A DNA stretch of 64,000 nucleotides from Escherichia coli (lineage in GTDB: Bacteria; Pseudomonadota; Gammaproteobacteria; Enterobacterales; Enterobacteriaceae): assembly GCF_965641715.1 (NCBI RefSeq), contig NZ_OZ282453.1; one strand, 5' to 3'. The notes under the pieces are model-generated. The model was given only the letters and a program-made list of their open reading frames with translations, had not been told where the DNA came from and made no database searches. Positions 2,082-43,589 of this stretch are shown in pieces (position 1 is the stretch's first letter; each line of letters opens with the position of its first letter). The position numbers and the translations under genes were made by a program.

Positions 2082-2091
2082 ATGGACAGTT

Positions 2092-2100
2092 TGGCCCCAA
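2092..2100. repeat. fimS 9-bp inverted repeat, fimE-proximal
   Basis: TGGCCCCAA, the reverse complement of 1787-1795. Confidence 0.9.
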
Positions 2101-2147
2101 TTGTCTTGTATTTATTTTTTTTTTAACTTTATTATCAATAAGTTAAA

Positions 2148-3824: not shown

Positions 3825-4834
3825 CGTTTTTCCCTTATAATTACAGACGCGCACTAGCTGTGCTGGGTTAGCAATAATCCAACATTTTTATCCTGATTAT
3901 GTTTATAAAAGCGAACGTTTGCTTAATAACTAACGTAAGTGGACCAGTTCTTCTGAGTGAACTTAAATGGAGTAGCAACAGTTAATTATAATAACGTTGC
4001 CATACAAACGCTATGCTCTTGCATGCTATGTACCTTTATATATTTATCAATCGGATACGAATCTAATAATAACCCTCATCATTAATGCAACTAATCTTAT
4101 CTATATATCATGTGATATGTTCTGTAACAAGTAAAATCAACATAAAAAATTCAGCAAAATTTAATATTCGTTCAACTAGCCGTCTCACATATGACATTAT
4201 TAGTCAACTCCATTTGCCACAAAATGGCTATTTCATGGAACGCAGTAATTTCTTAGTGGCTATTATCATGCTAATTCTTAGGTCCCTAGCGATTATTCCT
4301 GGCTGGTTCGTCAGTTTAGGCCATGAGATTGTTACATTCCTTTTTATCATGGAGATATGGGGGAAAGCAGGAAACGATTTTTTCATCTACATTCGTTGGT
4401 AAATATAGCTTTGGTCACTACGACTTAAACCTTCCTCAATCACAGGTATTCGCCGGGCGATACGGCAAACAAACTAAGTGAAACATCATCCTGAAAACAC
4501 CAACATCAACAAGCCTCTCCAGATCGACTTCAGAAGTGACCAGTTACAAGCCACAAACCAGGAAACATATTTCATGATGAGAATTATGCTCAGCCTGATG
4601 GCGGGTAAACACTGATTTTCACCAAGCTCACTGAGTTAGCTTGCAAAGCTTTCCTTGTTTAGACTCTAAATAAATTATTTATAAAACAAATAGTTAAACG
4701 AAGATCTTTAGTTTTTGAAGACCACCGCAAGTGTTCGTCTGGCTTCACATGGCATCTTCCTCTTAGAAAAAGATCGACATATTTTGTGACACGAATTGCA
4801 AATCTGGTTTTGTTGTATGGATTGCGTGATTTTT

Positions 4835-4858
4835 GATCTGGTATAACAGGTATAAAGG
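4835..4858. promoter_or_regulatory. NanR-type operator (GGTATA hexamer repeats) with an adjacent Dam GATC site in the fimB-nanC intergenic region
   Basis: GATCTGGTATAACAGGTATAAAGG: GATC followed by two GGTATA repeats and a partial third; NanR is known to act on fimB and nanC from this region. Confidence 0.55.
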
Positions 4859-5278
4859 TGAACCACGATAGACAATGAGACAGGGCATCTCGCAATCTAT
4901 GGCAAACATCACTTCAGTTCTTTCTCATCGGGTGATGAAAACGCACTTCAGTCTGAAAGGAATATGAAAATGAGATCAACAGACACTCTATTTTATGACT
5001 CTGGGTAAAATGAATTGAGTAAGTGATCTAGCTTACGAACATTCAAATCAATTAAACATCAGAATAGATTTTATACTCAAGTATTTAATCTGGCTCTCTG
5101 TTTATTTAAATAATGTGGAAAGAGATTTTTCACAGGAGACATTATACAAAAAATATAAAATACAGCTATCGGTTGCCAAAGACACTATAAGCCTGGCAAA
5201 AAATATTACACAACATAAATGCTAATTGTTTATGCGGGCTTTGTATTGCTTTCTGTATCCTACAAATGAGTGAAATTT

Positions 5279-5995
5279 ATGAAAAAGGCTAAAATACTTT
5301 CTGGCGTATTATTACTGTGCTTTTCGTCACCATTAATTTCTCAGGCTGCAACACTTGACGTACGTGGTGGATATCGTAGTGGAAGCCACGCCTATGAGAC
5401 TCGACTCAAAGTCAGTGAGGGATGGCAAAATGGATGGTGGGCAAGCATGGAAAGTAATACCTGGAATACCATTCATGATAATAAAAAGGAAAATGCCGCA
5501 CTCAATGATGTTCAGGTTGAAGTTAATTACGCAATTAAACTTGATGATCAATGGACGGTGCGCCCGGGAATGTTAACGCATTTTAGCAGCAACGGCACAC
5601 GCTACGGACCCTACGTAAAACTGTCCTGGGACGCGACAAAAGATCTTAATTTTGGCATTCGCTATCGTTACGACTGGAAAGCTTACCGACAACAAGACTT
5701 ATCCGGTGATATGTCTCGTGATAACGTTCATCGTTGGGATGGATATGTCACTTACCATATTAATAGTGATTTCACCTTCGCATGGCAAACGACGCTATAC
5801 AGCAAACAGAACGATTATCGCTATGCAAACCATAAGAAATGGGCGACGGAAAATGCATTTGTTCTACAATACCATATGACGCCCGATATTACGCCATACA
5901 TAGAATATGACTACCTGGACCGTCAGGGTGTTTACAACGGCAGAGATAATTTATCGGAAAACAGTTATCGCATTGGTGTGTCATTTAAACTGTAG
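5279..5995 (+). CDS. nanC: N-acetylneuraminic acid outer-membrane channel NanC (238 aa from the ATG at 5279)
   Basis: MKKAKILSGVLLLCFSSPLISQA signal peptide, C-terminal ...YRIGVSFKL beta-barrel signature; divergent from fimB. Confidence 0.9.
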   Translation: MKKAKILSGVLLLCFSSPLISQAATLDVRGGYRSGSHAYETRLKVSEGWQNGWWASMESNTWNTIHDNKKENAALNDVQVEVNYAIKLDDQWTVRPGMLTHFSSNGTRYGPYVKLSWDATKDLNFGIRYRYDWKAYRQQDLSGDMSRDNVHRWDGYVTYHINSDFTFAWQTTLYSKQNDYRYANHKKWATENAFVLQYHMTPDITPYIEYDYLDRQGVYNGRDNLSENSYRIGVSFKL

Positions 5996-27164: not shown

Positions 27165-28178
27165 CTATCCAAAAAAATGGTCCCAGGCATTACCAGCCCA
27201 CTCGATAAGTTTGTCTTTCCCCTTACGGGTAAGCTCTTTGACAGGCTTTGGTAACGGAAAAGAATCAATAACGTCGTCGAGTATCCCGGAGATTACGCTG
27301 CCGAAGCCGTTTTTTGCTTCCGTCTTGACCTCTTCGGTTTTGAACTCATCCTTAAACTGCGAAGCCGTGCTACTTTTAGCCCGATCAGGCAAAGCCCGAA
27401 TAATAGTCTCTACCAGACGAAGAATGTTGTAGCCCTCATCGGCGGAGACAGGTGTCACCGGATAGTGCGTAAAACCAAATCGTTCAGTAATGTAGGCTTC
27501 TTTCTTTTCGATGTTGATGCGCTGTGCAGGAGATGGCTGATGCAGATGAGTATCCCACTCGCGGAATGGCTCAATTTTATCAACCTGGTTAAGGACGAAT
27601 AAAACGCGCTCACCCCCACCAGCAGGGAGCAGAACATTGTTGTAGAAATGCTCATCCGCAGAAAAGGCCCGATCGTCTCCTTTTATTACCCACAGGATAA
27701 GATCCAGGGAGGGAAGCAAATTGCGGTATAAATCTTCATACTCCTTATCCCGCCGGGCATTCTCACCGACACCAGGTATATCAATGATCTTTAGCGAATG
27801 TTTGCCGAAGCGTATACGCAATTCCTGAACTTCGCGAGTACATGCCTCAACGTCGCTAACTGCACAAACCTCCCCTTTAAACAGCGCATTACATACGCTG
27901 CTTTTCCCCGCGCCTGTTTTTCCCATGACACCAATCACAGGTTCATAGTCGATGGCTTCACTGATTTTGTTCAACAGCTTTTCCCGCAGTGGCTGAGGGA
28001 AAATATCAAGAATATCCCTGATGTCGGGTATGTGCGGTTTGCTATCACCTTTTTGCTCGTTGCTACCATTACGTTCTGGAAATATATTGCCCCACATTCC
28101 AAAAATCCCGCCTTCCCTTCTGGTGACGCCACTGGCATCAGTAATCATCCGGCCTTCGCCCTTTACCGGGTCATCCAT
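27165..28178 (-). CDS. YfjP/YeeP-family GTPase
   Basis: P-loop GVMGKTGAGKSS and G3-like DIPGVGE. Confidence 0.75.
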   Translation of the reverse strand: MDDPVKGEGRMITDASGVTRREGGIFGMWGNIFPERNGSNEQKGDSKPHIPDIRDILDIFPQPLREKLLNKISEAIDYEPVIGVMGKTGAGKSSVCNALFKGEVCAVSDVEACTREVQELRIRFGKHSLKIIDIPGVGENARRDKEYEDLYRNLLPSLDLILWVIKGDDRAFSADEHFYNNVLLPAGGGERVLFVLNQVDKIEPFREWDTHLHQPSPAQRINIEKKEAYITERFGFTHYPVTPVSADEGYNILRLVETIIRALPDRAKSSTASQFKDEFKTEEVKTEAKNGFGSVISGILDDVIDSFPLPKPVKELTRKGKDKLIEWAGNAWDHFFG

Positions 28179-28217
28179 ACGAGGTCTCCTTTTTTAATTT
28201 GAAATAAACGTTGTCTG

Positions 28218-28901
28218 TTACTCTCTGAAGGTCTGAATTACGTCACTTATGAAACGAAAGTGTGGGAGGGCTGAAATGAACTCTTCACTGGCAGTCAGAG
28301 CATCAAGTTCAGGCTTTCTGCGAAAAGAGGTATCCAGAACGGTTACGGCGTTAACGTCTTCCATCCGAAACACCTGTAAATTTCTGGTGCGGGTAGCAAC
28401 AAGAAACCAGTTTTTGGACTGAAATATCAGACGGCGGGGAGCTACTGCTTCGTAGCTTTTACCGTTAACTAATAATGTAACGGCGCGGTAGTCGCGGATA
28501 GCTTCCGCCAGTTCCAGAAAACAGGCGGTTTGTGTAACTGGAGATGGCAGCCCTCCATGCCCTATAAGGCACGGCGAGCTTCCGGAGTTACTGGTAATCA
28601 GTCGAATTAACCTGCGATTCTGAGCCGGAATAATCCCTGAAATCCCGGAATTACGGATAAACGCAAAGGTGTTGGGTGAGTGCTCCCGGCCCGTTCGGCG
28701 GGTAAGTCGATAGCTTCCGCTGGAATGCTCAAGATCCAGATGGATTAGGCGTTGCTGAAAATCCCTCTGTAGGGTGCGTTCTGAGACACCAAATTCATCA
28801 GCTAACGCTTTAAGCTCCAGAGATTCGCCAGCTAGTAAGCGGGTGATAATGACCGATAGCCTGACAGACAGGCGGTCATAATGATCATGCTGTGTTTTCA
28901 T
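28218..28901 (-). CDS. HTH/WYL-domain transcriptional regulator (YfjR-like; from the ATG at 28901, the ORF track starts at 28988)
   Basis: N-terminal HTH LKALADEFGVSERTLQRDFQQ...; C-terminal WYL-like region. Confidence 0.6.
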   Translation of the reverse strand: MKTQHDHYDRLSVRLSVIITRLLAGESLELKALADEFGVSERTLQRDFQQRLIHLDLEHSSGSYRLTRRTGREHSPNTFAFIRNSGISGIIPAQNRRLIRLITSNSGSSPCLIGHGGLPSPVTQTACFLELAEAIRDYRAVTLLVNGKSYEAVAPRRLIFQSKNWFLVATRTRNLQVFRMEDVNAVTVLDTSFRRKPELDALTASEEFISALPHFRFISDVIQTFRE

Positions 28902-29216
28902 GGTGGGGACAGTCCTGTTCTCCCAAAATATCATGGTATTGATACGAGAGATTATGCCGTACAGGTACGACACGTTATGTCGTAGCAAAGGGGAGTGGAT
29001 AGAAAAAATGGCGAAGATGTGAAGAGTTGATTAATTCATTGAAACAAAATGAATTAATAATAATTTTGGGTAAAAGCGACGTCAAAATACGACATAACCT
29101 GTCGTATTTTGTTTTAGCCGGGAAAGGATAACTGCTACTTACTAAAATGATTTAGTGCTGAAAATATTTATAAGCCAATAAATAGACCGGTATTACGGAG
29201 TAACGCCCCGGCTATG

Positions 29217-30194
29217 TTAACGTGCCCGCTGTTTTATCGGCTCAAAAAACATATCCCAGAGATGTTCAGCCATACCCTCGTTAGTGAGCAAGGTATCCCT
29301 TGAGTAGCCAGGGCTGAAGACGCCCATTGATGGGCGAAAACCAAGGTTCTGGCCGTTATTGTCAATGGTTAAGATTTCATTGTAAGCATTGCCAATCACG
29401 CCATCCTGGCTATAACCAATATCGCCCATCCCCATATTTCGCCCGCTATTACGCCAGATTGCACATTGACCTACTTTGCTTCCCCCAATGTAGATCGCAC
29501 AAGTGAAGGCATCTGCGTCACGCTTATTAAAATCGACCTCTAACCCGGCATGGCGTTTTTTGAGTTCAGTCAGCGAGCCTTCAAAATAACGGGCGACATA
29601 TTCAAAACCGTCACGGCAGGCACGATCCTTATCAAGATCGGTAAAACGTTTTGGCAGTGAAAGGTTGCTCGAGCGTGGTGTAAAAACGGTATCCGTCGCC
29701 TGAAGCATTGGATTAGCCGGAGCTGGGGCGTGCACAATCTGTTGCGGCTTTTTCGCTTCCAAATTGGCAATAGCGCGGGAAACGGCATCGACAACCTGAA
29801 CATAGCCTTCATCATGGCTGGCAAATTTATCAATTGGCTTACCGTCAACAGTTGCCGCCAGAATGCGGCCAAACGGTAACATCTTCCACGCGCATTCTCT
29901 TAAGATCACCGGAATGACCACCGCCTCGCCCCGGCTATGTCGCTCCAGAGCGTTGGTCATTTCTACCTGATAGCAATAATCAGAAGCGATAAAATCACTG
30001 CTAATCAGCAACAGGATGATGTCTGCCTGAGAAAAGTAATGATCTATTTGGTTCTCAAACTCTTGTCCTGGAATGATGCGACGATCATGCCATGTCGTGA
30101 TCTTGCCCATGCGTTTCAGGGGGGAAAGATGCTTCTCAAGCTCATTGCGCAGAGCTTCGTCTGCATGAGAATAGGAAAAAACAAGAGAGGTCAT
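29217..30194 (-). CDS. TIR-domain protein with an uncharacterised C-terminal domain (325 aa)
   Basis: N-terminal TIR signature LVFSYSHADEALRNELEKHL...IILLLISSDFIASDYCYQVEMTNALER...VVIPVILREC; divergent from hsdM. Confidence 0.65.
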   Translation of the reverse strand: MTSLVFSYSHADEALRNELEKHLSPLKRMGKITTWHDRRIIPGQEFENQIDHYFSQADIILLLISSDFIASDYCYQVEMTNALERHSRGEAVVIPVILRECAWKMLPFGRILAATVDGKPIDKFASHDEGYVQVVDAVSRAIANLEAKKPQQIVHAPAPANPMLQATDTVFTPRSSNLSLPKRFTDLDKDRACRDGFEYVARYFEGSLTELKKRHAGLEVDFNKRDADAFTCAIYIGGSKVGQCAIWRNSGRNMGMGDIGYSQDGVIGNAYNEILTIDNNGQNLGFRPSMGVFSPGYSRDTLLTNEGMAEHLWDMFFEPIKQRAR

Positions 30195-30409
30195 AGTGCG
30201 TAAGATGCTCCGATAGGGATGTGGAAAATACCGTTATTCTGCGCCGATAAGTGTAAAAGAGTTATCCCCCCTTACCACAAGGTATTGATGCGGAAATCAG
30301 TCCTACATCTTGGTATCGCTCTGACGTCAGGGTATGATCTCTAACAATTTCCCCGATTTTACACAACCTAGACACCAAACCAGGATCAGATGATTTTTTT
30401 GAGGTTTTA

Positions 30410-32116
30410 ATGGACAACGCTGAACAGCAATTTCTGAACGATCTGGATACTAAGTTCTGGAAAGCCGCAGACAAGCTACGCGCCAATATGGACGCAGCCA
30501 ACTACAAGCATGTGGTACTTGGGCTTATCTTTCTGAAGTATGTTTCAGATGCCTTTGACGCACGCCAGAAGGAACTGAAAGGACTGTTTGAAGACAAGTC
30601 CAACCCGGACAACATTTACGCGCTGTCTCGTGACGATTACGACACAGAAGAGGCGTACCAGCAGGCGATCGCAGAAGAGCTGGAAGTTCAGGATTACTAC
30701 ACTGAGAAAAACGTCTTCTGGGTACCCAAACTGGCTCGCTGGGAAACGCTTAAAACCAATGCTGCTCTACCTGTAGGGACGGTTCTGGGGAAAGACGATA
30801 GCGGCAAAGATATCGTCATGACGTCAGTATCGAAGCTGATTGATATCGCTCTGGATACTATCGAAAACAGCAACCCGAAACTGAAAAACATCCTTAACTG
30901 TATCGGACACTATCAGCTTGGTAACGACCTGCTAATTAGCCTGATTAACGTTTTCTCCGATACCAGTTTCAGCGAACCCAAATACAATGGCGTGAAGCTC
31001 AATTTGAAGAGCAAAGATATTCTCGGCCACGTTTACGAATACTTCCTTGGTCAGTTTGCACTGGCGGAAGGCAAACAGGGCGGCCAGTATTACACGCCGA
31101 AAAGCATCGTTACGCTGATTGTTGAAATGCTCCAGCCCTACAATGGCCGCGTGTATGACCCGGCGATGGGATCTGGCGGTTTCTTCGTTTCCAGCGATCG
31201 CTTTATCGAAGCACACGCTGATGAAAAGCATTACAACGCCGCTGAACAAAAACGCAATATCTCCGTTTACGGGCAGGAGTCCAACCCTACCACCTGGCGT
31301 CTGGCTGCGATGAATATGGTGATTCGCGGTATTGATTTTAACTTCGGTAAACAAAACGCCGATACGTTCCTGAACGACCAGCACCCGGATTTACGTGCCG
31401 ATTTTGTTATGGCGAACCCGCCATTCAACATGAAGGAGTGGTGGAACGCCAAGCTGGAAAACGACGTGCGCTGGAAATACGGCACGCCGCCTCAGGGCAA
31501 CGCCAACTTTGCGTGGATGCAGCACATGATCCACCACCTGGCGCCAAAAGGCTCGATGGCGCTGCTGCTGGCGAACGGTTCGATGAGCTCTAACACCAAC
31601 AACGAAGGCGAGATCCGCCGCAACCTGATCGAAGCCGATCTGGTCGAGTGCATGGTCGCGCTGCCAGGTCAGTTGTTTACCAACACCCAAATCCCGGCCT
31701 GTATCTGGTTCCTGACCAAAGACAAATCCGGCGGTAACGGCAAAGCACACCGTAAAGGCGAAGTGTTGTTTATCGACGCGCGTCAGATTGGCTTTATGAA
31801 AGACCGCGTGCTGCGTGATTTTAGCCGTGAAGATATCGCCAGAATTGCTGATATCTTCCACGCCTGGCAGACGGATAAAGGCTATGAAGACGAAGCTGGA
31901 TTCTGTTTCTCCGCAACGCTGGAAGATATCCAGAAAAACGACTTTGTGTTGACCCCTGGGCGCTATGTCGGTGCGGCCGAGCAAGACGAAGACGATGAGC
32001 CTTTTGCCGAGAAGATGGCACGACTGACGGCGCAGCTGAAAGATCAGCTGGAAGAGAGCGCGAAGCTGGAAGCACAGATTAAGGCGAATCTGGGGGGGCT
32101 GGGTTATGAGTTCTAA
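30410..32116 (+). CDS. hsdM: Type I restriction-modification methyltransferase subunit HsdM
   Basis: N6-adenine methyltransferase motifs: DPAMGSGGFF (AdoMet binding) and NPPF (MANPPFNM). Confidence 0.9.
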   Translation: MDNAEQQFLNDLDTKFWKAADKLRANMDAANYKHVVLGLIFLKYVSDAFDARQKELKGLFEDKSNPDNIYALSRDDYDTEEAYQQAIAEELEVQDYYTEKNVFWVPKLARWETLKTNAALPVGTVLGKDDSGKDIVMTSVSKLIDIALDTIENSNPKLKNILNCIGHYQLGNDLLISLINVFSDTSFSEPKYNGVKLNLKSKDILGHVYEYFLGQFALAEGKQGGQYYTPKSIVTLIVEMLQPYNGRVYDPAMGSGGFFVSSDRFIEAHADEKHYNAAEQKRNISVYGQESNPTTWRLAAMNMVIRGIDFNFGKQNADTFLNDQHPDLRADFVMANPPFNMKEWWNAKLENDVRWKYGTPPQGNANFAWMQHMIHHLAPKGSMALLLANGSMSSNTNNEGEIRRNLIEADLVECMVALPGQLFTNTQIPACIWFLTKDKSGGNGKAHRKGEVLFIDARQIGFMKDRVLRDFSREDIARIADIFHAWQTDKGYEDEAGFCFSATLEDIQKNDFVLTPGRYVGAAEQDEDDEPFAEKMARLTAQLKDQLEESAKLEAQIKANLGGLGYEF

Positions 32117-33461
32117 GTTTCGGAAAGTAAAACTATGTGAAATCCTCTCATTTAAGACAGGTAAACTCGACTCGAATGCAGCAGTAGATAATGGTTGTTA
32201 TCCTTTTTTTACTTGCTCGCCAGTTACACTTTCGATTAATACGCATGCTTTTGACACTGAAGCAGTATTATTAGCTGGTAATAACGCAAATGGGGTATTT
32301 TCAGTAAAATACCACAATGGTAAGTTTAATGCTTACCAAAGAACATATGTTATTACTCCTCTGGATAATTCAGCGGTCAATGTGAAATGGCTTTATTTTA
32401 GAATAAAATATGTTACGTCAGAATTACAATCAATGTCAGTTGGCACTGCAACAAAATTCTTAACAAAAAAGATTTTGGATTCATTTGAGATTGAACTGCC
32501 AACTTTTGAAGAGCAAACATATCAAGCTCAGATTTTATGGGCGTTACAGGATAAATTAGCTAATAATGAAGCTATAAACCAAACTCTCGAACAAATGGCG
32601 CAAGCCCTGTTCAAAAGCTGGTTTGTCGATTTTGAACCGGTAAAAGCCAAAATGGCAGCGTTGGAAGCGGGCGGTTCGCAGGAAGACGCGACACGTGCCG
32701 CCATGACGGCAATTTCCGGGAAAGATGCTGATGCGTTGGTGGTTTTTGCGCGTGAACATCCTGAGCAATATGCCGAGTTAAAAGCCACGGCAGAACTGTT
32801 TCCGTCTGCGGTGCAGGAAAGTGAGTTGGGGGCGATTCCTAAAGGATGGGGGGTGGCGTCAATTAGTGAGATGGGGAAGATTACTTGTGGCAAAACTCCG
32901 TCAAAAAAAGAACCAAAGTATTACGGTGGTGATGTTCCATTCATAAAGATACCAGATATGCATGGGCAACTCTTTGTGCTTAAAACTAATGAATATTTAA
33001 GCGAAGTCGGTTCAAAGTCGCAACTAAAAAAACTTGTGCCCGCTAACTCTATCTGTGTTAGTTGTATAGCTACTATTGGTGTTGTTTCTATCACCAATGA
33101 ACCATCTCATACCAATCAGCAAATAAATTCGGTTACACCTTATAAGAGTTCATTACTTTATTATCTTTATTTTTGTATATTGGGATTGAAAGATCATCTT
33201 CACGTTTTAGGTAGCGCAGGTAGTGCAACCTTAAATGTCAATACGTCTACTTTCTCAGGAATTAAAATCGCTCAGCCTGATGCTAAAGTATTGGAGTTAT
33301 TTCATGCCAAATGTACACAATTATTTAATGAGATTAAATCGCTCTGTGTACAAACTGAATCACTTGCACAACTACGAGACACCCTCCTCCCCAAACTCCT
33401 CTCCGGAGAAATTACGTTACCGGATGCCGAGGAAATAGCCAAGGAAGCTGACTATGTTTAA
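32106..33461 (+). CDS. hsdS: Type I restriction-modification specificity subunit HsdS
   Basis: Overlaps the hsdM stop; two AT-rich variable segments alternating with GC-richer conserved segments, as expected for two target-recognition domains. Confidence 0.85.
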   Translation: MSSKFRKVKLCEILSFKTGKLDSNAAVDNGCYPFFTCSPVTLSINTHAFDTEAVLLAGNNANGVFSVKYHNGKFNAYQRTYVITPLDNSAVNVKWLYFRIKYVTSELQSMSVGTATKFLTKKILDSFEIELPTFEEQTYQAQILWALQDKLANNEAINQTLEQMAQALFKSWFVDFEPVKAKMAALEAGGSQEDATRAAMTAISGKDADALVVFAREHPEQYAELKATAELFPSAVQESELGAIPKGWGVASISEMGKITCGKTPSKKEPKYYGGDVPFIKIPDMHGQLFVLKTNEYLSEVGSKSQLKKLVPANSICVSCIATIGVVSITNEPSHTNQQINSVTPYKSSLLYYLYFCILGLKDHLHVLGSAGSATLNVNTSTFSGIKIAQPDAKVLELFHAKCTQLFNEIKSLCVQTESLAQLRDTLLPKLLSGEITLPDAEEIAKEADYV

Positions 33462-34647
33462 AGTCGATCAGCCCAGTAATAGCCTGCAACCGCTTCAGGA
33501 AACCACCTTCACTAACGCGGGTTTCACCGAGCGCTACCACTTACAGGAGTGGCTGGCAAAGCATCCGCAAGCATTGACTCGCAACAGCGATGACGAACTA
33601 CTTATCATCCAGAAAGAGTTTGCCGGGTTTGACGACACCAAAGAGCGGTTAGATCTGCTGGCGATCGACAAAGACGGCAATCTGGTGATCATCGAGAACA
33701 AGCTCGATGATTCCGGGCGTGATGTCGTATGGCAGGCGCTGAAGTACGCGGGCTACTGCGCGAATCTACGCAAAGAACATATTGTTGAGATCTTCCAGCG
33801 TTACCTCGATCAGAACGATCCAGAAGAAACACGCCCAGCCTCTGATGTGCTCGCAGAATTCCTCGAACATGAAAGCCTGGATGAAGTGCAAATTAACCAA
33901 AGCCGTTCCCAGCGTGTGATGATGGTTGCGGCAAATTTCCGCAAGGAAGTTACCAATACTGCGCTCTGGCTGATGCAGTTCAACATCCGTGTCCAATGCT
34001 TTAAGGTCACGCCTTACCGTTATGGAAATGATGTATTCATCGACATCCGCCAGGTTATTCCCACACCGGAAGCCGAATCCTACATGATCGGTATGGCGCA
34101 GAAGGAAGCAGAAGAACAATCAACCAGCGGTGAACTGAAACAGAGCCAACGCCTGCGCAAGGCGTTCTGGACGCAGATGCTGGAGAAATTTCATGCCAGC
34201 GACTGTACGCTGTATAACAACATCAGCCCGTCTATGGATCACTGGTTATGTGCAGGCTCTGGCATAAGTGGTATGCCTTATAGCCTAATATTCAGCAAGA
34301 AGGAAATCCGCGTAGAATTATGGATTTCGCGAGCATCGGCAGACATCAACACCATGGCGTTGAACTGGCTTGAACAACACCGCACATCTGTCGAAGAGGT
34401 ATTCGGCAACCCACTGGAGTGGCTATCGCTACCTGGTAAAAAAGCCTGCCGTATTCAATACCGCCAAAAAATAGATGGCTTCCAGCAGGAAAATTGGCCG
34501 CAAATGATCGACTGGCTGGTGGAACATATGACCCGTTTTGAGAATGCGCTTTCGCCGTATCTGCCACAGCTTAACCAGTTGATCAAGCAGACCTTTAACG
34601 GGCATGATGAAGCTGAAAATACAACAGAAGAAGCCGAACACGTATAA
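33454..34647 (+). CDS. Uncharacterised 397-aa protein inside the RM operon, with a PD-(D/E)xK-like motif
   Basis: Start overlaps the hsdS stop; 16 bp before hsdR; RLDLLAIDKDGNLVIIENKLDD resembles a D...E-x-K nuclease core; no Walker A. Confidence 0.6.
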   Translation: MFKVDQPSNSLQPLQETTFTNAGFTERYHLQEWLAKHPQALTRNSDDELLIIQKEFAGFDDTKERLDLLAIDKDGNLVIIENKLDDSGRDVVWQALKYAGYCANLRKEHIVEIFQRYLDQNDPEETRPASDVLAEFLEHESLDEVQINQSRSQRVMMVAANFRKEVTNTALWLMQFNIRVQCFKVTPYRYGNDVFIDIRQVIPTPEAESYMIGMAQKEAEEQSTSGELKQSQRLRKAFWTQMLEKFHASDCTLYNNISPSMDHWLCAGSGISGMPYSLIFSKKEIRVELWISRASADINTMALNWLEQHRTSVEEVFGNPLEWLSLPGKKACRIQYRQKIDGFQQENWPQMIDWLVEHMTRFENALSPYLPQLNQLIKQTFNGHDEAENTTEEAEHV

Positions 34648-34662
34648 CACAGGACGTTACCG

Positions 34663-37600
34663 ATGCTTACCGAAGACGACTTAGAACAGCTTTGCCAGGG
34701 CTGGTTTGCCGAACAAGGTTGGGAAATCCATCATGGGCCAGATATTGCCCCCGATGGCTGTAACCCGCAACGCGCCAGCTATCATGATGTATTCCTGACG
34801 CCCGTGTTGAACGCCTGCCTGCAAAAAATCAACCCGCACCTGCCCACTGACGTCTTCGAACAGGTCATCTCCCGTATTACTCGCGCTGAAAGCCCGGATC
34901 TGATTGCCAGTAACAAAGCCTTTCATCACTGGTTGCTGGAAGGGGTTCCGGTACAGTACCGTCGCGACGAAGAACTTATCCACGACCACGCCCTGCTGGT
35001 GGATTTTAGCCAGCCGCAAAACAACCGTTTTATGGTGGTCAATCAAATGACTATCAGCGGAACGAAACAGCCTCGCCGCCCGGATATCATCTGCTTTATT
35101 AACGGAATACCACTGGCGGTTGTGGAACTAAAAAGCCCTGTCGATGACAAGGTAGATATCTGGGATGCGTACCACCAGTTACAGACCTATAAAGATGAAA
35201 TACGCGACCTGTTTATCAGCAATGAAGCGTTGATTGTCAGTGATGGTTATCTGGCGCGTGTGGGGTCCCTGACCGCCACGGAAGAACGTTTTATGCCGTG
35301 GAAGACCATCAGCAATGAAAATGACAAGCCGTTGCTGGAATGGCAACTGGAAACTATGGTACGGGGTTTCTTCAACCGGGAATTGCTGCTCGACTATATC
35401 CGCTATTTCGTTCTGTTTGAAAATAACGATGAAAGGCTAATTAAGAAAATAGCTGGTTATCACCAGTTCCACGCGGTGCGTGAGGCCGTGCAGGCGACGA
35501 TCGTTGCTTCGACCGGTAAGCAACTGGTACTGCACAGTAATATTCAGCCAGGCAGTAAGAAAGCAGGCGTGGTCTGGCATACGCAGGGTTCCGGTAAAAG
35601 CATCTCCATGTGTTGCTATGTCGGCAAACTGTTGCAACAGCCGGAGATGGGCAACCCGACGATTGTTGTTGTGACCGATCGTAACGATCTGGACGGCCAG
35701 CTTTATGGTACATTCTGCCAGGCACAGGAGCTGCTCAAGCAAATGCCGGTACAGGCAGATGATCGTGAAACATTGCGTGATCTGCTTGCAACTCGCGATG
35801 CTGGCGGCATTATCTTTACCACCGTGCAGAAATTCTCCCCGGAAGAAGGGGAAAACGCCCATCCGATTCTCAATGGACGCAGCAATATCGTTGTTATTTC
35901 CGATGAAGCGCACCGCAGCCAGTACGGCATGAAAGCCAACCTGGATCGTAAAACCGGCGTCTATAAATACGGTTACGCTAAACATATGCGCGACGCGCTA
36001 CCTAACGCCTCGTTTCTGGGATTTACCGGTACACCGGTTTCGGCAGAGGATCGCGATACTCGCGCTGTATTTGGCGATTACGTCTCAATTTATGATATTC
36101 AGGACGCTGTGGACGATGGCGCAACGGTGCCTATTCACTATGAATCCCGGCTGGCAAAACTCGATCTCAATCATGAAGAGCTGGCGGCGCTGTCCGATCA
36201 GGTTGAAGAACTGATTGAGGACGATGAGCTGGATCAGAGAGAAAAAACCAAAGGTGAATGGAGCCGTCTGGAGAAACTAGTTGGTGCTAAACCACGTCTT
36301 CAGCAGATCGCTGCCGATCTGATTTCTCACTTTGAGAAGCGCAATACCGTAATGGACGGCAAGGCGATGATTGTCGCCATGAGCCGTGAAATCTGCGTCC
36401 ATCTTTACGATGAAATTATTGCGTTGCGTCCGGAGTGGCACGATGACGATCCTGAAAAAGGGCAAATCAAAATCGTGATGACCGGTACAGCATCTGATAA
36501 GGCAATGCTGCAACCGCATATCTACAACAAACGGACTAAAAAACGGCTGGAATCCCGCTTCAAGAATGTGAACGACCCGCTGAAGCTGGTGATAGTGCGT
36601 GATATGTGGCTGACCGGCTTTGATGCCCCATGCTGTCACACTATGTATATCGACAAACCGATGCGCGGCCATAACCTGATGCAGGCTATTGCCCGTGTCA
36701 ACCGGGTATTCAAAGACAAGCCCGGCGGGCTGGTGGTGGATTATATTGGTATCGCCAATGAGCTGAAACTGGCGCTGAAAACTTATACCGATGCAAACGG
36801 TAAAGGTGATGCGACCGTCAACGCTGAAGAAGCACTGGCAATCATGCTGGAAAAGCTGGACATCATCCACGGTATGTTTGCCAAAACGGCAACGTCAGCG
36901 GGTTTTGATTACACCGGCTTTGAAGCTCATGCGCAGAAGTTGCTAGTACCAGTTGCAAACTATGTGCTCGGCCTTGAAGACGGTAAGAAGCGTTTTCTCG
37001 ATAACGTACTGGCAATTACTAAAGCCTGGTCGCTTTGCTGTACGCTGGATGCGGCGCAGCCTTATAAACTAGAGATTGCTTTCTTGTCGGCGGTAAAAGC
37101 TGCTATCAGCAAATTCACCAGTGTGGACAAAAAAATAAGCCAGGCTGAGAAGAACTCCGCGCTGAAACAGATTCTGGATAATGCCGTAATTGCTAACGGC
37201 GTGGATGATATTTTCACGCTGGCTGGTCTGGATAAACCGAATATTGGCTTGCTTTCAGATGAATTCTTGCAGGAAGTCCGCGATATGCCATATCGAAATC
37301 TGGCGGTAGAGCTGCTGGAAAAACTGATTAATGACGGTATCCAGTCCCGTACAAAAAACAATGTAGTGCAGGAGAGGAAATATTCAGAACGTCTTCAGGC
37401 TGTATTGATTAAATACAACAACCGGGCTATTGAGACGGCGCAGGTGATTGAAGAGCTGATCCAGATGGCGAAGGATTTTCAGTCTGCAATGGCGCGTGAT
37501 GATGCGCTTGGCCTGAATCCTGACGAGATCGCTTTCTACGATGCACTGGCAGAAAACGAAAGCGCCGTCCGGGAGTTAGGAGATGAGGTACTTAAGAAAC

Positions 37601-37797
37601 TGGCGATAGAAGTGACGCTGAAGCTGCGCCAATCCACTACCGTTGACTGGCAGGTACGGGAAAGCGTTCGTGCAAGGCTGCGTATCCTGGTTCGCCAGAC
37701 TCTGCGTCGGTATAAGTATCCGCCAGATAAAACGCCGGGTGCGGTGGAGTTAATTTTGAAACAAGCGGAAGTTATTTCGAATCATTGGACGATGTGA
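34663..37797 (+). CDS. hsdR: Type I restriction-modification endonuclease/helicase subunit HsdR
   Basis: 1044 aa; Walker A TQGSGKS, DEAH box [11 protein letters not shown], and further helicase motifs. Confidence 0.9.
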
Positions 37798-37861
37798 ATT
37801 TTAGGCTGGCTGTATCAACTGCCAGCCATATTTAAATTATCATCAGTTAAAAGGCACAATT

Positions 37862-39604
37862 GTGAGTAAATATAGCGAAATACAACGTCAATTAGATGAA
37901 GTAAGCCCAATACCGAAAGGTATTCCTAAAGTATACCTTTTAGGGGACACTGGAGCAGGAAAGACGACTTTTATTCGAAAAATATTAGGAACTGAAAATA
38001 CCAAATTCCCTACCACCAGACAAAGTAGAACAACCGTTGCACCAACTGAGTATGTAATATGTAAATCATCCAATTATGAATTAACGATTCTGTTAAAATC
38101 TTTTGATGAGATTAATGGATATGTCAGAGAAATTCTAAAAGAAGCATTAGAGAAATCATTGAAAGGTGAAGATGTTAAAAGAAGCTTACGTCAAACAAAT
38201 GATCAGCGGTTTCGTTTATACTATCTTCTTGACGTCAGTGATATTGCAAATTTTGCTGAAGAAGTTATCTCTCTTACACCTCTTCTTTCCGAAAAAATTG
38301 ACGAATTAAAAGAAATTTTTACCGATGATATAACGGATCAAGATGAGTATATTAGTTTTGCTATTGATGAATTAAATGATAAAGTTGAATGTATCCAAAA
38401 TAAGATTATGGACTCCATTCAGAGTAATGTAATGTCCATTTGTAATGGAAGTATGTTAAGTAATGAATCACAGATATTTAAATACATTTCAACCGAAAAA
38501 GAAGACTTTATCAAAAAATGTAAAAAAATATTATCAAGTGATAAAGAGTCTATATCACCTGTTGTCGAGTATGCGAGACTGAGTGGAGAACTCAAATCAG
38601 AATGGGTGAATAGTTGTGCAGAAATAGTTATTATTGATGGTGAAGGTATTGGGCATAATACAAAAGAAACGGCACAACTAGACTCCAGGCATTATGATTT
38701 CTTTTATGATGTTAACTCAATCTTGCTTATCGAAGAGTCAAAAAAACCTTTTATTGCTGGGGGCAAAAATGCATTAAAAAGTATTTTTCAGCGTGGATAT
38801 GGTGATAAATTAAAACTAATCTTCACTAAGCTGGATGAAGTTATACCTTATGATTCAGACGAATCAACAGATGAAGATAGAATTGATTATGTAAAAGATG
38901 GTCTCAATAATGTTCTGGATGCATTAAAAAAAGAAGAGGTGAAGTGTAACATTGATATCGAGGATATTTATTTCATCGGAGATCTTGATAAACCTGAGCA
39001 TAACGCAAGACTTGAATTGGCTTTTAATTCCATATATGAAAACACAGTTTCCATGATAAATAATGATGAGGTTTTCATTGAGCCTAAGTATGACTTTGAG
39101 TTATTGGCCTTGCATATAAATTCTACTTCTAATGATTTTAAAACATACTATAGAAAATTATTAGATAGAGAACATTGGAAAACAATAGAAGCATTTAATC
39201 GACGGATGTATTCAAATATAGATGGGTTTAGGATGTTTATGCCTATTACCGATTTTGAGGAAACTGTGAGTAAATATATTGGTGGTTTTTTGACCTCGCC
39301 AATGGATTGGAAATATGAAGCGGTTGATAACTTGAAGCAAAAAAGTATTAATAAAATCAAGAGGGAATTCAACAAGCTTATTCTTAGCTTTATTCGCAAT
39401 AAGTTAATTATGGAACCATATGAAAAATGGAAAGAATCCTATTTCTTAGCTGGCACTGGTTCAACGATTAGTAGAAAACGTGAGATAACTACTATTTTTA
39501 GTGACACAATTATTGATGCCTCCCAAACTGAACGCTTTAAGGTGTTCAAGGATCAAATTAAAGAGATTGTTGTCAAGTCAATAGAGAACTGTAAGTCAAT
39601 ATAA
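37862..39604 (+). CDS. AT-rich P-loop GTPase-like protein (580 aa, GTG start)
   Basis: G1 GDTGAGKTT, G3-like DGEGIG, G4-like TKLD; much more AT-rich than the flanking hsdR. Confidence 0.6.
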   Translation: MSKYSEIQRQLDEVSPIPKGIPKVYLLGDTGAGKTTFIRKILGTENTKFPTTRQSRTTVAPTEYVICKSSNYELTILLKSFDEINGYVREILKEALEKSLKGEDVKRSLRQTNDQRFRLYYLLDVSDIANFAEEVISLTPLLSEKIDELKEIFTDDITDQDEYISFAIDELNDKVECIQNKIMDSIQSNVMSICNGSMLSNESQIFKYISTEKEDFIKKCKKILSSDKESISPVVEYARLSGELKSEWVNSCAEIVIIDGEGIGHNTKETAQLDSRHYDFFYDVNSILLIEESKKPFIAGGKNALKSIFQRGYGDKLKLIFTKLDEVIPYDSDESTDEDRIDYVKDGLNNVLDALKKEEVKCNIDIEDIYFIGDLDKPEHNARLELAFNSIYENTVSMINNDEVFIEPKYDFELLALHINSTSNDFKTYYRKLLDREHWKTIEAFNRRMYSNIDGFRMFMPITDFEETVSKYIGGFLTSPMDWKYEAVDNLKQKSINKIKREFNKLILSFIRNKLIMEPYEKWKESYFLAGTGSTISRKREITTIFSDTIIDASQTERFKVFKDQIKEIVVKSIENCKSI

Positions 39605-39706: not shown

Positions 39707-40672
39707 ATGCCTTTAGATTTAAGTAACACTTTAGTTATTGGCATTAGCGCGACTGCGCTTTTTGACATGAGCGAATCCGACCATATGTTTCGGGAAACCT
39801 TTGCGACTGATCCTGATAGCGCCATTGAAAAATACCGCGCTTATATGCTAGAACACGAAAACCAACCTTTACAGCCCGGAACAGGCTACCCCTTAGTCAA
39901 AGCGTTGCTGGGTCTGAACCAGTACCGTCAACCGGATGATAAATCGCCGTTGGTTGAGGTTGTTGTGATGTCACGTAACAGCCCTGATACAGGTATCCGC
40001 GTTCTCAATACCATTCGCCATGACAAACTCGATATTACACGTTCAGCTTTTACCGCAGGCGAAACCGTTGCCGATTACCTTGATGCCTTTGATGTGGATC
40101 TGTTTTTAACGACCAACGTTGAAGATGCGCAAAAGGTGATTGATTCCCGATTCTGCGCCGCTGCAATCCTGAAAGATCCACCTTCTGACGCATCTGATAT
40201 CCCAGAAGGGCAAGTGCGCATTGCTTTTGATGGCGACGCGGTACTTTTTTCCGATCAAAGCGAACTGGTTTATAAGACCCAAGGAATGGCTGCCTTCCAT
40301 GCTCAGGAAGACGCGCAGCAGGATATCCCTATGGAAGAGGGGCCTTATGCCACTTTGCTAAAAAAAATAGCCAAGCTTCAGGAACGATTGCCGACCCGCG
40401 TTGAGTATTCTCCTGTTCGTATTGCGCTGGTGACAGCCCGAAATAGCCCTTCGGAAATGCGCGTTATTAAAACGCTAAGAAGCTGGGGGGTATATGTCGA
40501 TGAAGCTTTTTTTCTTGGCGGTGTAGAGAAAACAAAAGTTCTGAAGGCGTTTAGGCCACACATTTTCTTTGACGATCAGGATGTGCATTTGATCGCGGCT
40601 GCAAAGGTAGTACCTTCTGGTAAAGTACCTTATGCCAGTAACTCCGAACTTGCAGAACGTGAAGCATCGTGA
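39707..40672 (+). CDS. 5'-nucleotidase-family protein (HAD-like)
   Basis: HAD-type motif IAFDGDAVLFSD and C-terminal FFDDQDVH; family assignment from memory. Confidence 0.5.
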   Translation: MPLDLSNTLVIGISATALFDMSESDHMFRETFATDPDSAIEKYRAYMLEHENQPLQPGTGYPLVKALLGLNQYRQPDDKSPLVEVVVMSRNSPDTGIRVLNTIRHDKLDITRSAFTAGETVADYLDAFDVDLFLTTNVEDAQKVIDSRFCAAAILKDPPSDASDIPEGQVRIAFDGDAVLFSDQSELVYKTQGMAAFHAQEDAQQDIPMEEGPYATLLKKIAKLQERLPTRVEYSPVRIALVTARNSPSEMRVIKTLRSWGVYVDEAFFLGGVEKTKVLKAFRPHIFFDDQDVHLIAAAKVVPSGKVPYASNSELAEREAS

Positions 40673-41670: not shown

Positions 41671-41840
41671 CTATATGTACATTCAAGGCATTATTGCAGA
41701 CATCCTTTTTGCCTGACTGCTCTGTACCTGGCAGATGAAATTCTGATAACAACGGTAAAAAATACAGCGACCAACCAGTCCTAAGCGGGCTGGTTGGTCT
41801 TTTAAATTTAAACATCAGCCGAGGAATAACGGCATTCAAC

Positions 41841-43109
41841 TCACTCGCCATTACCCCGATTGATCTTCGCATAGTCAAACGGCGTAATCGCTCTCTCCCG
41901 ATTGGCATCCAGAAAATCAGCCCACCACTGCAACATCAGCTTGCGCTCATCCAGGTGTTCCGCTTTATGGATATACGCCGCCCTCACCGAGCTGCGTTCC
42001 ATATGGCTCATCTGCCTTTCCACCGCATCCTTCGACCATAACCCTGACTCAATCAATGAGCTACAGGCCATTGTGCGGAAGCCGTGGCCGCAAACTTCAA
42101 CCTTAGTGTCATAACCCATCACCCGTAGCGCACTGTTTACCGTGTTCTCGCTCATGGGCTTACGCGGATCGTGATCGCCAATAAAAATCAGCTCATGTTC
42201 GCCACAGAACTGTTTTATCTGCTTCAGGATCGCCAGCGCCTGCTTTGAAAGCGGCACCAGATGCGGTGTACGCATCTTTGAACCTCGCTGAGAATGTTTC
42301 ACACCGGGAATCGGTTCTCGCTCAGGCGGGATGGTCCACATTGACGTTTCAAAATCGATTTCTGACCAGCGAGCAAAACGTAGCTCACTGGATCGAATAA
42401 AGATAAGCAGAGTGAGTTCTGTCGCCCAGCGGGTTAGCGGCCTGCCTGTATAGCTATCTATTTTCTCAAGTAACTCAGGGATACGCTTTAATTCCAGCGC
42501 CGGGCGATGCTGTCGATTGCCAGAGGCGACTGCTCCAGCCATCTCCTGCGCTGGGTTGTAATCAATCAGCCCACTTTGCACTGCATAACGCATAATGGCC
42601 GTGGTACGCTGTTGGAGACGAGAAGCCACCTCAAGACGTCCAGACAGTTCCACCGCTTTAATGGGTGCCAGTAAGTCACGAGTGCCCAATTCGGCAATAT
42701 TGCGAGAACCAATTGCCGGGAAGATATTGTCCTCCAGGCTCTTTTTTACACGATTAGCATGATCTTCTGACCATTTTTGGTTGGTTACGAGCCACTCTCT
42801 GGCAACCTTCTCGAAAGTAATAATCTCTTTCGCCTGCTCTTCTTTCACAGCACGCTTATGCTCACGAGGATCGATACCAGCAGCTACCAGCTTTCTGGCC
42901 TCTTCCCTTTTCTTCCTGGCATCTGCCAGCGAAACATCCGGGTAAACGCCGAACGCCATCAAATGTTGTTTACCGCCAAAACGGAAACGAAATCGCCAAT
43001 ACTTTGAACCGCCAGGTTTTACAAGTAAGGACATGCCATCGCCGTCAACAAGTGAATACTCTTTCTCCTCAGGTTTCGCAGAGCGAACTTTAGTATCCGT
43101 TAGGGCCAT
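41841..43109 (-). CDS. intB: P4-type tyrosine integrase (from the ATG at 43109; the ORF track starts at 43187)
   Basis: MALTDTKVRSAKPEEKEYSLVDGDG...; C-terminal ...HGFRTMACSSLIESG... catalytic region; about 200 bp from the leuX 3' end. Confidence 0.9.
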   Translation of the reverse strand: MALTDTKVRSAKPEEKEYSLVDGDGMSLLVKPGGSKYWRFRFRFGGKQHLMAFGVYPDVSLADARKKREEARKLVAAGIDPREHKRAVKEEQAKEIITFEKVAREWLVTNQKWSEDHANRVKKSLEDNIFPAIGSRNIAELGTRDLLAPIKAVELSGRLEVASRLQQRTTAIMRYAVQSGLIDYNPAQEMAGAVASGNRQHRPALELKRIPELLEKIDSYTGRPLTRWATELTLLIFIRSSELRFARWSEIDFETSMWTIPPEREPIPGVKHSQRGSKMRTPHLVPLSKQALAILKQIKQFCGEHELIFIGDHDPRKPMSENTVNSALRVMGYDTKVEVCGHGFRTMACSSLIESGLWSKDAVERQMSHMERSSVRAAYIHKAEHLDERKLMLQWWADFLDANRERAITPFDYAKINRGNGE

Positions 43110-43270
43110 AATGGTCTTCCTTCCATTGGTATCTCGTGAGTATACAAGCAATATCGAATCGGCAAATATACTCATTAGTATACTCACAAGCCTGTTGATG
43201 TGGGTTGGTTCAGGTTGACTTCAGTTGAGGAGAAAAGCTGGAAAAGCCTTGCGTGGCGCGGATTTCAGGC

Positions 43271-43298
43271 ATAAAAAAAGACCTCAGTTGAGGTCTAT
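43271..43298 (-). terminator. Rho-independent terminator downstream of leuX
   Basis: Hairpin AGACCTCAGTTGAGGTCT followed by a T-run on the tRNA strand. Confidence 0.6.
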
Positions 43299-43309
43299 TT
43301 ACATACTTT

Positions 43310-43394
43310 TGGTGCCGAAGGCCGGACTCGAACCGGCACGTATTTCTACGGTTGATTTTGAATCAACTGCGTCTACCGATTTCGCCACTTCGGC
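43310..43394 (-). tRNA. leuX: tRNA-Leu (leuX), intact with CCA end
   Basis: Reverse complement GCCGAAGTGGCGAAATCGGTAGACGCAGTTGATTCAAAATCAACCGTAGAAATACGTGCCGGTTCGAGTCCGGCCTTCGGCACCA; 85 nt. Confidence 0.95.
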
Positions 43395-43589
43395 ACTGAA
43401 GAGGTATGCGGAAAACGTTGTGGATTATACCTGTCGCACGCCACCATGCAAGCGCCAGCTTGCTCGCACCTCGCTAAGTGCTGAAATTTTCAGCATTGCA
43501 TACAGCGATGTGTAACCTTTGTCACACTCCAGGCACCCCGCCCTGCCATGCTCTACACTTCCCAGACAACACCAGAGAAGGACCAAAAA

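Follow-up and report, generated by a model that had tools for sequence, protein, structure and literature searches.

We found that the hsdS gene at positions 32106–33461 of the window (the whole 64,000-nt stretch of E. coli DNA analysed here) is a compositional mosaic, in which AT-rich segments encode the variable target-recognition domains (TRDs) and GC-richer segments encode the conserved regions. On the available sequence comparisons, the gene is very probably an ordinary type I hsdS with a variable/conserved mosaic and represents a recombinant allele, the activity of which we infer. In type I HsdS proteins, each globular TRD recognises one of the two half-sites of a bipartite target, and the long helices pair with each other, set the spacing of the half-sites and dock two HsdM subunits, to which HsdR adds restriction.

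The gene lies in an operon with the order hsdM, hsdS, a DUF4268 gene and hsdR, all on the + strand. The methyltransferase subunit is encoded by hsdM (30410–32116; 568 aa; Pfam N6_Mtase, E = 5e-115, and HsdM_N; PADLOC MTase_I, E = 2e-176), whose end overlaps the start of hsdS by 11 nt. The 451-aa specificity subunit encoded by hsdS matches Pfam Methylase_S (PF01420) in two stretches (E = 2e-38; best stretch aa 245–392) and PADLOC Specificity_I over its full length (E = 7e-161). A PDB search with HsdS gave 1yf2 (E = 1e-28), and solved HsdS chains were matched by both halves of the protein. NCBI already contains a protein identical to this HsdS, which occurs in 33 E. coli contigs. The hsdS stop is overlapped by 8 nt by the start of a putative accessory gene of the operon (33454–34647; 397 aa; Pfam DUF4268, E = 2e-36), the product of which matches the PADLOC candidate family PDC-S11 (E = 1e-177). 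The restriction/translocase subunit is encoded by hsdR (34663–37797; 1044 aa; Pfam HSDR_N, SWI2_SNF2, T1R_D3-like and T1RH-like_C; PADLOC REase_I, 1207 bits), and both hsdM and hsdR have full Pfam domain sets. A tyrosine recombinase gene is located about 8 kb downstream, adjoining a tRNA-Leu gene at 43310–43394; it is the island integrase beside leuX, an arrangement shared with other E. coli strains. The operon is thus a complete set of type I restriction-modification genes on a defence island anchored at leuX in an E. coli-like chromosome. An Rfam scan of the window gave no match in or near the operon. A promoter/terminator scan of 30000–38000 gave 7 promoter-like sites, with 10.1 expected from shuffles, and these were not concentrated in the AT-rich TRDs. 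Spurious intragenic promoters in the TRDs were therefore dropped as a candidate feature, since promoter-like sites are no commoner than in shuffles.

An earlier reading of the sequence alone (the sequence-only reading) had described alternating AT-rich and GC-richer segments in hsdS. This alternation was borne out, with GC contents of 0.337 at 32150–32520, 0.514 at 32560–32880, 0.346 at 32900–33330 and 0.495 at 33360–33460, the window mean being 0.465. A binomial change-point search over 31500–34500, with the number of segments chosen by BIC, gave an optimum of five segments, with change points at 32106, 32598, 32862 and 33366 and GC contents of 0.548, 0.337, 0.549, 0.351 and 0.503 in order. 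These change points indicate that the limits first proposed for the segments are correct within about 40–80 nt. Uniform composition, which had been named beforehand as the observation that would speak against the mosaic, was not seen in this quantitative segmentation. The GC contrast within hsdS is greatest at third codon positions: GC3 is 0.24 in TRD1, 0.50 in the central region, 0.27 in TRD2 and 0.48 in the C-terminal region, and 0.55–0.63 in hsdM, the DUF4268 gene and hsdR. The AT-rich parts of hsdS lie at about the 5th percentile of 370-nt windows, which is not extreme for such an island-rich stretch; the unusual feature is the alternation within one gene, rather than the depth of AT-richness.

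Alignment with other alleles, proposed earlier as a check, was carried out on ten hsdS alleles, that of the window and nine others (L001–L009), and the AT-rich segments proved to be variable and the GC-richer ones conserved. DNA similarity to the nine other alleles ends at 32109–32117, spans 32574–32849 and restarts at 33350–33369. These homology limits lie no more than about 25 nt from the compositional change points. The AT-rich segments are therefore the TRD-encoding variable regions and the GC-richer segments the conserved ones, and the proposal of two TRDs separated by conserved regions holds. Variable region 1 (32106–32573, +; GC 0.338) encodes TRD1 (aa 1–131) and the variable first half of a helix (aa 134–175); it is identical (100%) to that of L006, L008 and L009, and similarity to L001–L005 and L007 is absent. 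The central conserved region (32574–32849, +; GC 0.522) encodes the end of helix 1 (INQTLEQMAQALFKSWFVDF), an insert (aa 177–230) and a linker ending in IPKGW. Its nucleotide identity to all nine alleles is 76–100%, and its invariant residues cluster at aa 161–178 and 245–248. Variable region 2 (32850–33367, +; GC 0.36) encodes TRD2 (aa 249–390) and the variable first two thirds of a second helix (aa 393–432); it is 95–98% identical to those of L006 and L007 and unrelated to those of the remaining alleles. The C-terminal conserved region (33368–33461, +; GC 0.50–0.51) encodes the end of helix 2 (LRDTLLPKLLSGEI) and a tail, with invariant residues from R424 to L431. Exact limits are thus now given for the two variable and two conserved regions of hsdS, which is mainly of value for annotation.

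The TRDs, helices and insert were delimited in an AlphaFold model of HsdS (pLDDT 81.8), whose pTM of only 0.45 makes the relative placement of the domains uncertain. The best Foldseek matches to the model are HsdS structures (1yf2, 7vru_C, 1ydx, 2y7c_A, 5ybb_D and 7bst_A). In the model, each AT-rich variable region consists of a globular TRD and the first 23–27 residues of the following helix, and the conserved, GC-richer regions begin mid-helix, at residues 157 and 420, rather than where TRD and helix meet. The predicted plan of HsdS is the standard TRD1-CR1-TRD2-CR2, to which the central region adds a family-specific helical insert of about 55 aa. Similarity between the first and second halves of HsdS was undetectable by BLASTp. 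This mutual dissimilarity indicates that the halves are not a recent duplication, and a palindromic target is not expected.

The domain shuffling invoked by the sequence-only reading was confirmed, as TRDs are reassorted among natural alleles both in the ten-allele alignment and in database clusters. With TRD types denoted by letters (TRD1/TRD2), the a type is found in the combinations a/x (the window and L006), a/y (L008) and a/z (L009), and the others are b/y (L001), c/u (L002), d/u (L004), c'/x (L007), e/v (L003) and f/v (L005). Natural alleles sharing one TRD with the window's HsdS can now be named: L008 (strain PSS-08-1), L009 (FACU 2024) and L007 (LHM10-1); L006, with both TRD types in common, is from AL.H8. 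When TRD sharing was scored at 80% identity or more among the best 120 database clusters (90%-identity clusters), both TRDs were common to two of the 120, TRD1 only to 22 and TRD2 only to 67. TRD shuffling has been described previously (PMC3874165, PMC12707154). Because the alleles are alike only in the conserved regions, homologous recombination can reassort TRDs there. The window's allele is itself a recombinant of this kind.

Two recombination breakpoints were located in the operon. The left one lies inside hsdM at 31409–31428, where the sequence changes from lineage A to lineage B: 198 of the 199 informative sites in 30413–31408 match lineage A (L002–L004), and 54 of the 61 in 31429–32065 match lineage B (L006, L008 and L009). 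A sliding identity profile also supports this breakpoint. The right one, at which the sequence returns from lineage B to lineage A, lies where the C-terminal conserved region begins (33350–33386); in the alignment, the window resembles L006/L007 up to about 33348 and L002–L004 from about 33386, and the identity profile agrees. A patch of about 1.95 kb (approximately 31409–33386) was thus acquired from a second, about 75–80% identical lineage within the family. The patch comprises the final 690 nt of hsdM together with TRD1, the central region and TRD2, and the operon outside it is a backbone with 97–100% conservation. The window's allele therefore arose when an entire specificity cassette was imported from a sister lineage.

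We also investigated the cause of the AT/GC contrast, about half of which comes from amino-acid content and about half from synonymous codon choice. The TRDs are rich in Lys, Asn, Ile and Phe and the helices in Ala, Glu and Gly; the FYMINK fraction is 0.33/0.30 in the TRDs and 0.21 in the central region, and the GARP fraction is 0.17/0.16 and 0.32, respectively. Given the codon usage of the operon, the amino-acid sequence predicts a GC content of 0.47/0.48 in the TRDs and 0.56 in the central region. The observed values are 0.34/0.36 and 0.52, so that the TRDs are 0.12–0.13 below the prediction. The likeliest reason for the AT-ending codons is that the TRDs belong to a horizontally exchanged pool that would never have been homogenised with the host; frequent recombination would keep the conserved segments host-like. 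In a Marinobacter relative, TRD GC3 reaches about 0.5 and hsdM GC3 is 0.83. TRD composition therefore partly tracks the host, an observation at odds with one unameliorated low-GC source. In L002–L004, GC3 of the central region is merely 0.30–0.39, so the conserved part is not uniformly host-like.

Alternatively, the synonymous AT-richness of the TRDs might arise in place. Lacking a homologous partner, the TRDs would escape recombination and GC-biased gene conversion and drift to an AT-rich mutational equilibrium, while the often-recombining conserved regions would be kept GC-richer. This alternative competes only on the cause of the contrast, not on the identity of the segments. It agrees with the similar size of the TRD GC3 deficit, relative to the central region and hsdM, across hosts that differ in GC content (E. 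coli, Morganella, Marinobacter and metagenomic contigs), with the presence of the deficit in three type I families of E. coli, and with the position of the mapped recombination breakpoints in conserved sequence. However, the TRD1 DNA is 100% identical across distinct operon lineages, and the a/x TRD pair is common to many Klebsiella genomes (at least 90% aa identity); together these indicate recent horizontal movement, not long residence. The low central-region GC3 of L002–L004 is a further point against it. We regard an origin in place as possible, though doubtful, and favor the exchanged TRD pool.

It is very unlikely that the mosaic is a by-product of protein composition alone, with no difference in evolutionary history. 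By that explanation, likewise very unlikely, β-rich TRDs would call for residues with AT-rich codons (Lys, Asn, Ile, Phe and Tyr), and helical linkers for residues with GC-rich codons (Ala, Glu, Gly and Arg). Amino-acid content does account for about half of the observed GC gap, but the TRDs remain 0.12–0.13 under the amino-acid expectation, and the compositional limits are the homology limits inside the helices, not the domain boundaries of the fold. As the sole cause, amino-acid content is refuted by the GC3 difference (0.24–0.27 in the TRDs versus 0.50 in conserved regions and 0.55–0.63 in hsdM/hsdR).

The four-segment log-likelihood gain of hsdS was 20.2, compared with 7.9 ± 2.3 in codon shuffles, and was reached by one of 1000 shuffles. 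When the codon-shuffle test was applied to every non-overlapping ORF of 300 codons or more in the window (26 in all), hsdS (z = 5.3) was the sole outlier, the next gene having z = 1.8. Although the window has further AT-rich patches as deep, these results, together with the recurrence of the alternation in every allele examined, leave a chance fluctuation in base composition practically negligible as an explanation. Known hsdS shufflons carry more than one hsdS copy, together with inverted repeats and a recombinase of their own. That the window's hsdS belongs to such a programmed phase-variable system, with the mosaic representing invertible cassettes as in Mycoplasma and pneumococcal systems, is exceedingly improbable: the tyrosine recombinase near tRNA-Leu would fit, but it is the leuX island integrase, tblastn and blastn searches of hsdS across the 64-kb window found no second full or partial copy, and a search for inverted and tandem repeats in and around hsdS gave none that was significant, only short chance matches. 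With a single hsdS copy and no relevant inverted repeats, a shufflon is refuted for the window.

The TRD/conserved-region plan of hsdS is a textbook pattern, and the window's gene is ordinary. In all 16 fully segmented alleles, TRD GC3 is lower than central-region GC3. Compared with hsdM and the conserved regions on either side, it is about 0.2–0.3 lower in three E. coli families and in relatives from Morganella, Marinobacter and metagenomes, and the mosaic is also found in the EcoKI hsdS of K-12 and in the hsdMSR of the Nissle 1917 immigration control region. Only tentatively do we suggest that AT-richness of TRDs at synonymous sites marks type I specificity genes in general, independently of the host. 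Such a signature may reflect a distinct evolutionary regime, for example an escape from recombination-driven GC enrichment for want of a homologous partner; alternatively, it may reflect a trans-species pool with turnover faster than amelioration. If the signature is real, segmenting unannotated hsdS genes by composition could be enough to delimit their TRDs and recombination-prone linkers. Its occurrence across several families and hosts, a small evolutionary observation, could make composition a cheap TRD delimiter. When the literature was searched for GC mosaicism within hsdS, the only description retrieved was of a whole-gene GC deviation, which was read as evidence of horizontal transfer (PMC12255300).

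Finally, we compared the system with known type I families. The enterobacterial type IA systems (EcoKI, and StySB/StySP giving rise to StySQ) have the same plan of TRD1, central conserved region, TRD2 and C-terminal conserved region, and crossover in their conserved regions generates new specificities (PMC3874165). The EcoKI hsdS of K-12 is likewise a mosaic, with GC3 values of 0.13–0.20 in the TRDs versus 0.37–0.70 in the conserved parts and 0.66 in hsdM. However, the window's HsdM is merely 27% identical to EcoKI HsdM over 275 residues (PDB EcoKI M, E = 2e-22), and BLASTp of the window's HsdS against EcoKI HsdS gave no match, which rules out type IA membership. The gene order (hsdM-hsdS-X-hsdR versus hsdR-hsdM-hsdS in type IA) and the locus (leuX island versus the immigration control region for EcoKI) differ as well. 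Type IC systems (EcoR124I/II) share the hsdM-hsdS-hsdR order with the window. The nearest solved structure to the window's HsdR is EcoR124I HsdR (E = 7e-29), over residues 104–488 (the motor domain) only, and the HsdM is distant from EcoR124II M (E = 2e-33). The central region (32574–32849) carries the helical insert, unlike type IC, and a tandem 12-nt (4-aa) type IC-like repeat was not found in it. Type IC membership is ruled out by the distant HsdM and HsdR matches and the lack of this repeat. The window's TRD2 weakly resembles the second TRD of EcoR124II HsdS (E = 7e-10), the only characterised TRD relative found, which is too distant for a half-site of the recognition sequence to be derived from it.

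The E. coli Nissle 1917 system, located in the immigration control region and probably of the type ID (StySBLI/EcoR9I) family, shares with the window the order hsdM-hsdS-hsdR, the AT-rich-TRD mosaic and similar conserved HsdS motifs (NQTLEQM.Q.LFKSWFVDF.PV and LR.TLLPKL.SGEL). It differs in having no DUF4268 gene, and its HsdM and HsdR are merely 44% and 32% identical to those of the window, far below the identity within a complementation family. The structure of a type I methylation subunit in PDB 3khk, which we take to be from the archaeon Methanosarcina mazei, includes the M subunit only and is uninformative on the window's HsdS or TRDs. The window's HsdM aligns with it over 524 residues (E = 5e-270) with most columns identical, indicating that the two proteins belong to the same HsdM family.

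The hsdS gene (32106-33461, +), which encodes the specificity subunit of a type I restriction-modification operon, is a compositional mosaic. The sequence-only reading had described four alternating AT-rich and GC-richer segments, and we measured GC contents of 0.337, 0.514, 0.346 and 0.495 for them; the window mean is 0.465. An unsupervised change-point search of 31500-34500 reached its BIC optimum at five segments (GC 0.548, 0.337, 0.549, 0.351 and 0.503) with change points at 32106, 32598, 32862 and 33366, so that the segment limits first proposed are correct to about 40-80 nt. Uniform composition had been set beforehand as the refuting outcome, and the gene is non-uniform not only by BIC: its segmentation gain is 20.2 versus 7.9 ± 2.3 in codon shuffles, a value reached by 1 of 1000 shuffles, and of the window's 26 long ORFs only hsdS is a segmentation outlier (z = 5.3; next 1.8). 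Other AT-rich patches lie at 1651-5400, where the window is at its most AT-rich, and at 59101-60300 and 62301-63700; their GC minima over 400 nt are 0.25, 0.33 and 0.29, respectively.

We then compared hsdS at the DNA level with nine alleles of the same operon, the alignment that had been named as a check. Similarity stops at 32109-32117, returns only in 32574-32849 and returns for good at 33350-33369. Because these homology limits lie no more than about 25 nt from the change points, the variable regions are the AT-rich segments and the conserved regions the GC-richer segments, as anticipated. An AlphaFold model of HsdS (pLDDT 81.8, pTM 0.45), whose closest structural matches are solved HsdS subunits, contains a globular domain at residues 1-131 (target-recognition domain 1, TRD1), a long helix (134-175), a four-helix insert (177-230), a second globular domain (249-390, TRD2) and another long helix (393-432). 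On this model, the variable, AT-rich blocks reach 23-27 residues into each long helix, with conservation beginning at residues 157 and 420. The central region (32574-32849) is itself of at least two sequence types among same-island alleles (90-100% versus 75-84% nucleotide identity), and the latter type, found at L002-L004, has a GC3 of only 0.30-0.39. Among relatives (L012, L013 and L015 included), this region is 40, 59, 89-92 or 103 aa long, and the length of the helical insert varies.

The two TRDs assort separately among the ten aligned alleles. With TRD1 types named a-f and TRD2 types named u-z, the window and L006 are a/x, L008 is a/y, L009 is a/z, L001 is b/y, L002 is c/u, L004 is d/u, L007 is c'/x, L003 is e/v and L005 is f/v. 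In a search of 5.8 billion proteins with HsdS, the best 120 clusters (90% identity) were compared TRD by TRD; at 80% identity or more, 2 share both TRDs with the window, 22 share TRD1 alone and 67 share TRD2 alone. Both TRDs occur, at 50-57% identity, in some metagenomic proteins whose scaffold has a far shorter central region, and thus TRDs also move across scaffold variants. A programmed shufflon is ruled out, since neither a second hsdS copy nor relevant repeats are found within the 64-kb window. Reassortment is instead recombination between strains, and TRD exchange is established to change specificity (PMC3874165).

The present allele bears the marks of such an exchange. In sliding comparisons with the nine loci, the backbone (30401-31400 and from about 33400 to 37600) is 97-100% identical to a same-island lineage (L001-L004). 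Between these stretches, the window matches a second lineage (L006, L008 and L009), whose identity over the rest of the operon is about 70-80% and which is found in other islands, beside Zorya genes in L006 and L009 and in another setting in L008. The final 700 nt of hsdM are 92-100% identical to the second lineage, TRD1 is 100% identical to it and the central region 94-100%; TRD2 is 95-98% identical to those of L006 and L007. The left breakpoint falls at 31408-31429, with 198 of 199 informative sites of the first lineage before it and 54 of 61 of the second after it; the right one, at about 33350-33386, lies at the start of the C-terminal conserved region. Both TRDs were thus imported together, in a cassette of about 1.95 kb, via homologous recombination in conserved flanks. 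The imported 3' end of hsdM may keep a co-adapted M-S interface.

What causes the contrast? If codons were used as in hsdM, the DUF4268 gene and hsdR, amino acids alone would give the two TRD regions a GC of 0.47 and 0.48 and the central region one of 0.56, versus 0.34, 0.36 and 0.52 observed; GC3 is 0.24-0.27 in the TRDs versus 0.50 in the central region. Therefore, about half of the contrast is protein composition and about half is synonymous. The pattern is a general one: TRD GC3 is below central-region GC3 in all 16 fully segmented alleles (E. coli, Klebsiella, Morganella, Marinobacter and metagenomes). The EcoKI hsdS of K-12 shows GC3 of 0.13-0.20 in the TRDs and 0.37-0.70 in the conserved parts (hsdM, 0.66), and AT-rich TRDs are also present in the hsdMSR system of the Nissle 1917 immigration control region. 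In Marinobacter, TRD GC3 is about 0.5 versus 0.83 for hsdM; thus, TRD composition tracks that of the host only partially. The composition data are compatible with a fast-turning horizontal pool of TRDs, and also with an escape of TRDs from recombination-linked GC enrichment.

The operon comprises hsdM (30410-32116, +; Pfam N6_Mtase and HsdM_N), hsdS (451 aa; two Methylase_S stretches, E 2e-38), a DUF4268 gene (33454-34647, +; PADLOC candidate family PDC-S11, E 1e-177) and hsdR (34663-37797, +; HSDR_N, SWI2_SNF2, T1R_D3-like and T1RH-like_C). hsdM and hsdS overlap by 11 nt, and the hsdS stop overlaps the DUF4268 gene by 8 nt. PADLOC type I models matched the MTase (E 2e-176), specificity (E 7e-161) and REase (1207 bits) genes. 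Complete E. coli genomes with the same operon number 139, and Klebsiella plasmids carry it too. L001 (E. coli 2EC1, same island) has intact hsdS and hsdR genes, but its hsdM (3001-4710) is, by annotation, a pseudogene interrupted by a stop codon. The hsdS-hsdR interval varies among relatives (L007, L011, L013, L015-L018): L007 has no gene there, other E. coli loci have only DUF4268, Marinobacter has DUF4268 with an SLFN/ATPase gene, Morganella has an uncharacterised 301-aa gene, and elsewhere the interval contains DUF4268 with a Fic/RhuM gene, HEPN_AbiU2 or an FRG-domain gene. On one contig, a YhcG gene instead separates hsdM from hsdS. This variable interval resembles a docking site for accessory defence genes.

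The operon is located in a defence island that adjoins tRNA-Leu(CAA) (43310-43394) and an island integrase, on an E. coli-like chromosome (flanks 96-99% identical to E. coli genomes; idn genes, yjgR, lptFG, pepA and valS on the right). This site is called leuX-anchored hotspot 37 in a recent review that places type I systems in 17% of its loci (PMC12707154). Upstream (27165-30194, -), the island encodes a ThsB-like TIR protein (PADLOC E 3e-157) whose ThsA partner is not seen, together with a WYL-domain protein and a GTPase weakly similar to LeoA/LeoBC. Directly 3' of hsdR, a 580-aa ORF with a GTG start (37862-39604, +) occupies a markedly AT-rich stretch (GC down to 0.29) and has no match in Pfam or PADLOC; it is annotated as hypothetical in E. 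coli EC291 and missing from other island carriers, where a gene of about 110-165 aa takes its place (L003 has no annotated gene at this point). A PDC-S08 candidate follows (39707-40672, +; a 5'-nucleotidase by E. coli annotation). At syntenic E. coli loci (L001-L004, L010), a phosphorothioated-DNA-binding restriction endonuclease (by annotation) and the island integrase adjoin leuX; in the corresponding part of the window (about 41800-43400), the integrase position is taken by a 445-codon ORF (41841-43175, -). Farther right, a match to Rfam Ysr276 (Yersinia sRNA 276, antisense type; 54407-54601, -; 179.6 bits, gathering score 100) is antisense to an ORF (53849-55360, +) that corresponds to pepA of the E. 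coli locus L010.

As for known systems, type IA is rejected because HsdM is only 27% identical to EcoKI M, and type IC because EcoR124II M matches at E 2e-33 and EcoR124I HsdR at E 7e-29 in the motor domain only. The Nissle hsdMSR system, which is probably type ID, is 44% (M) and 32% (R) identical. HsdM matches PDB 3khk (chain 3khk_A; E 5e-270) along 524 residues, most of the aligned columns being identical. This structure presumably comes from the archaeon Methanosarcina mazei; if it is truly archaeal, this M subunit family has recently crossed between domains of life. The exact HsdS protein is already in NCBI on 33 E. coli contigs, and Klebsiella pneumoniae commonly carries relatives that are at least 90% identical and have this TRD pair. 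Neither the architecture nor the shuffling nor the low GC of hsd genes is new, and the sequence-only reading is a correct description of an ordinary gene.
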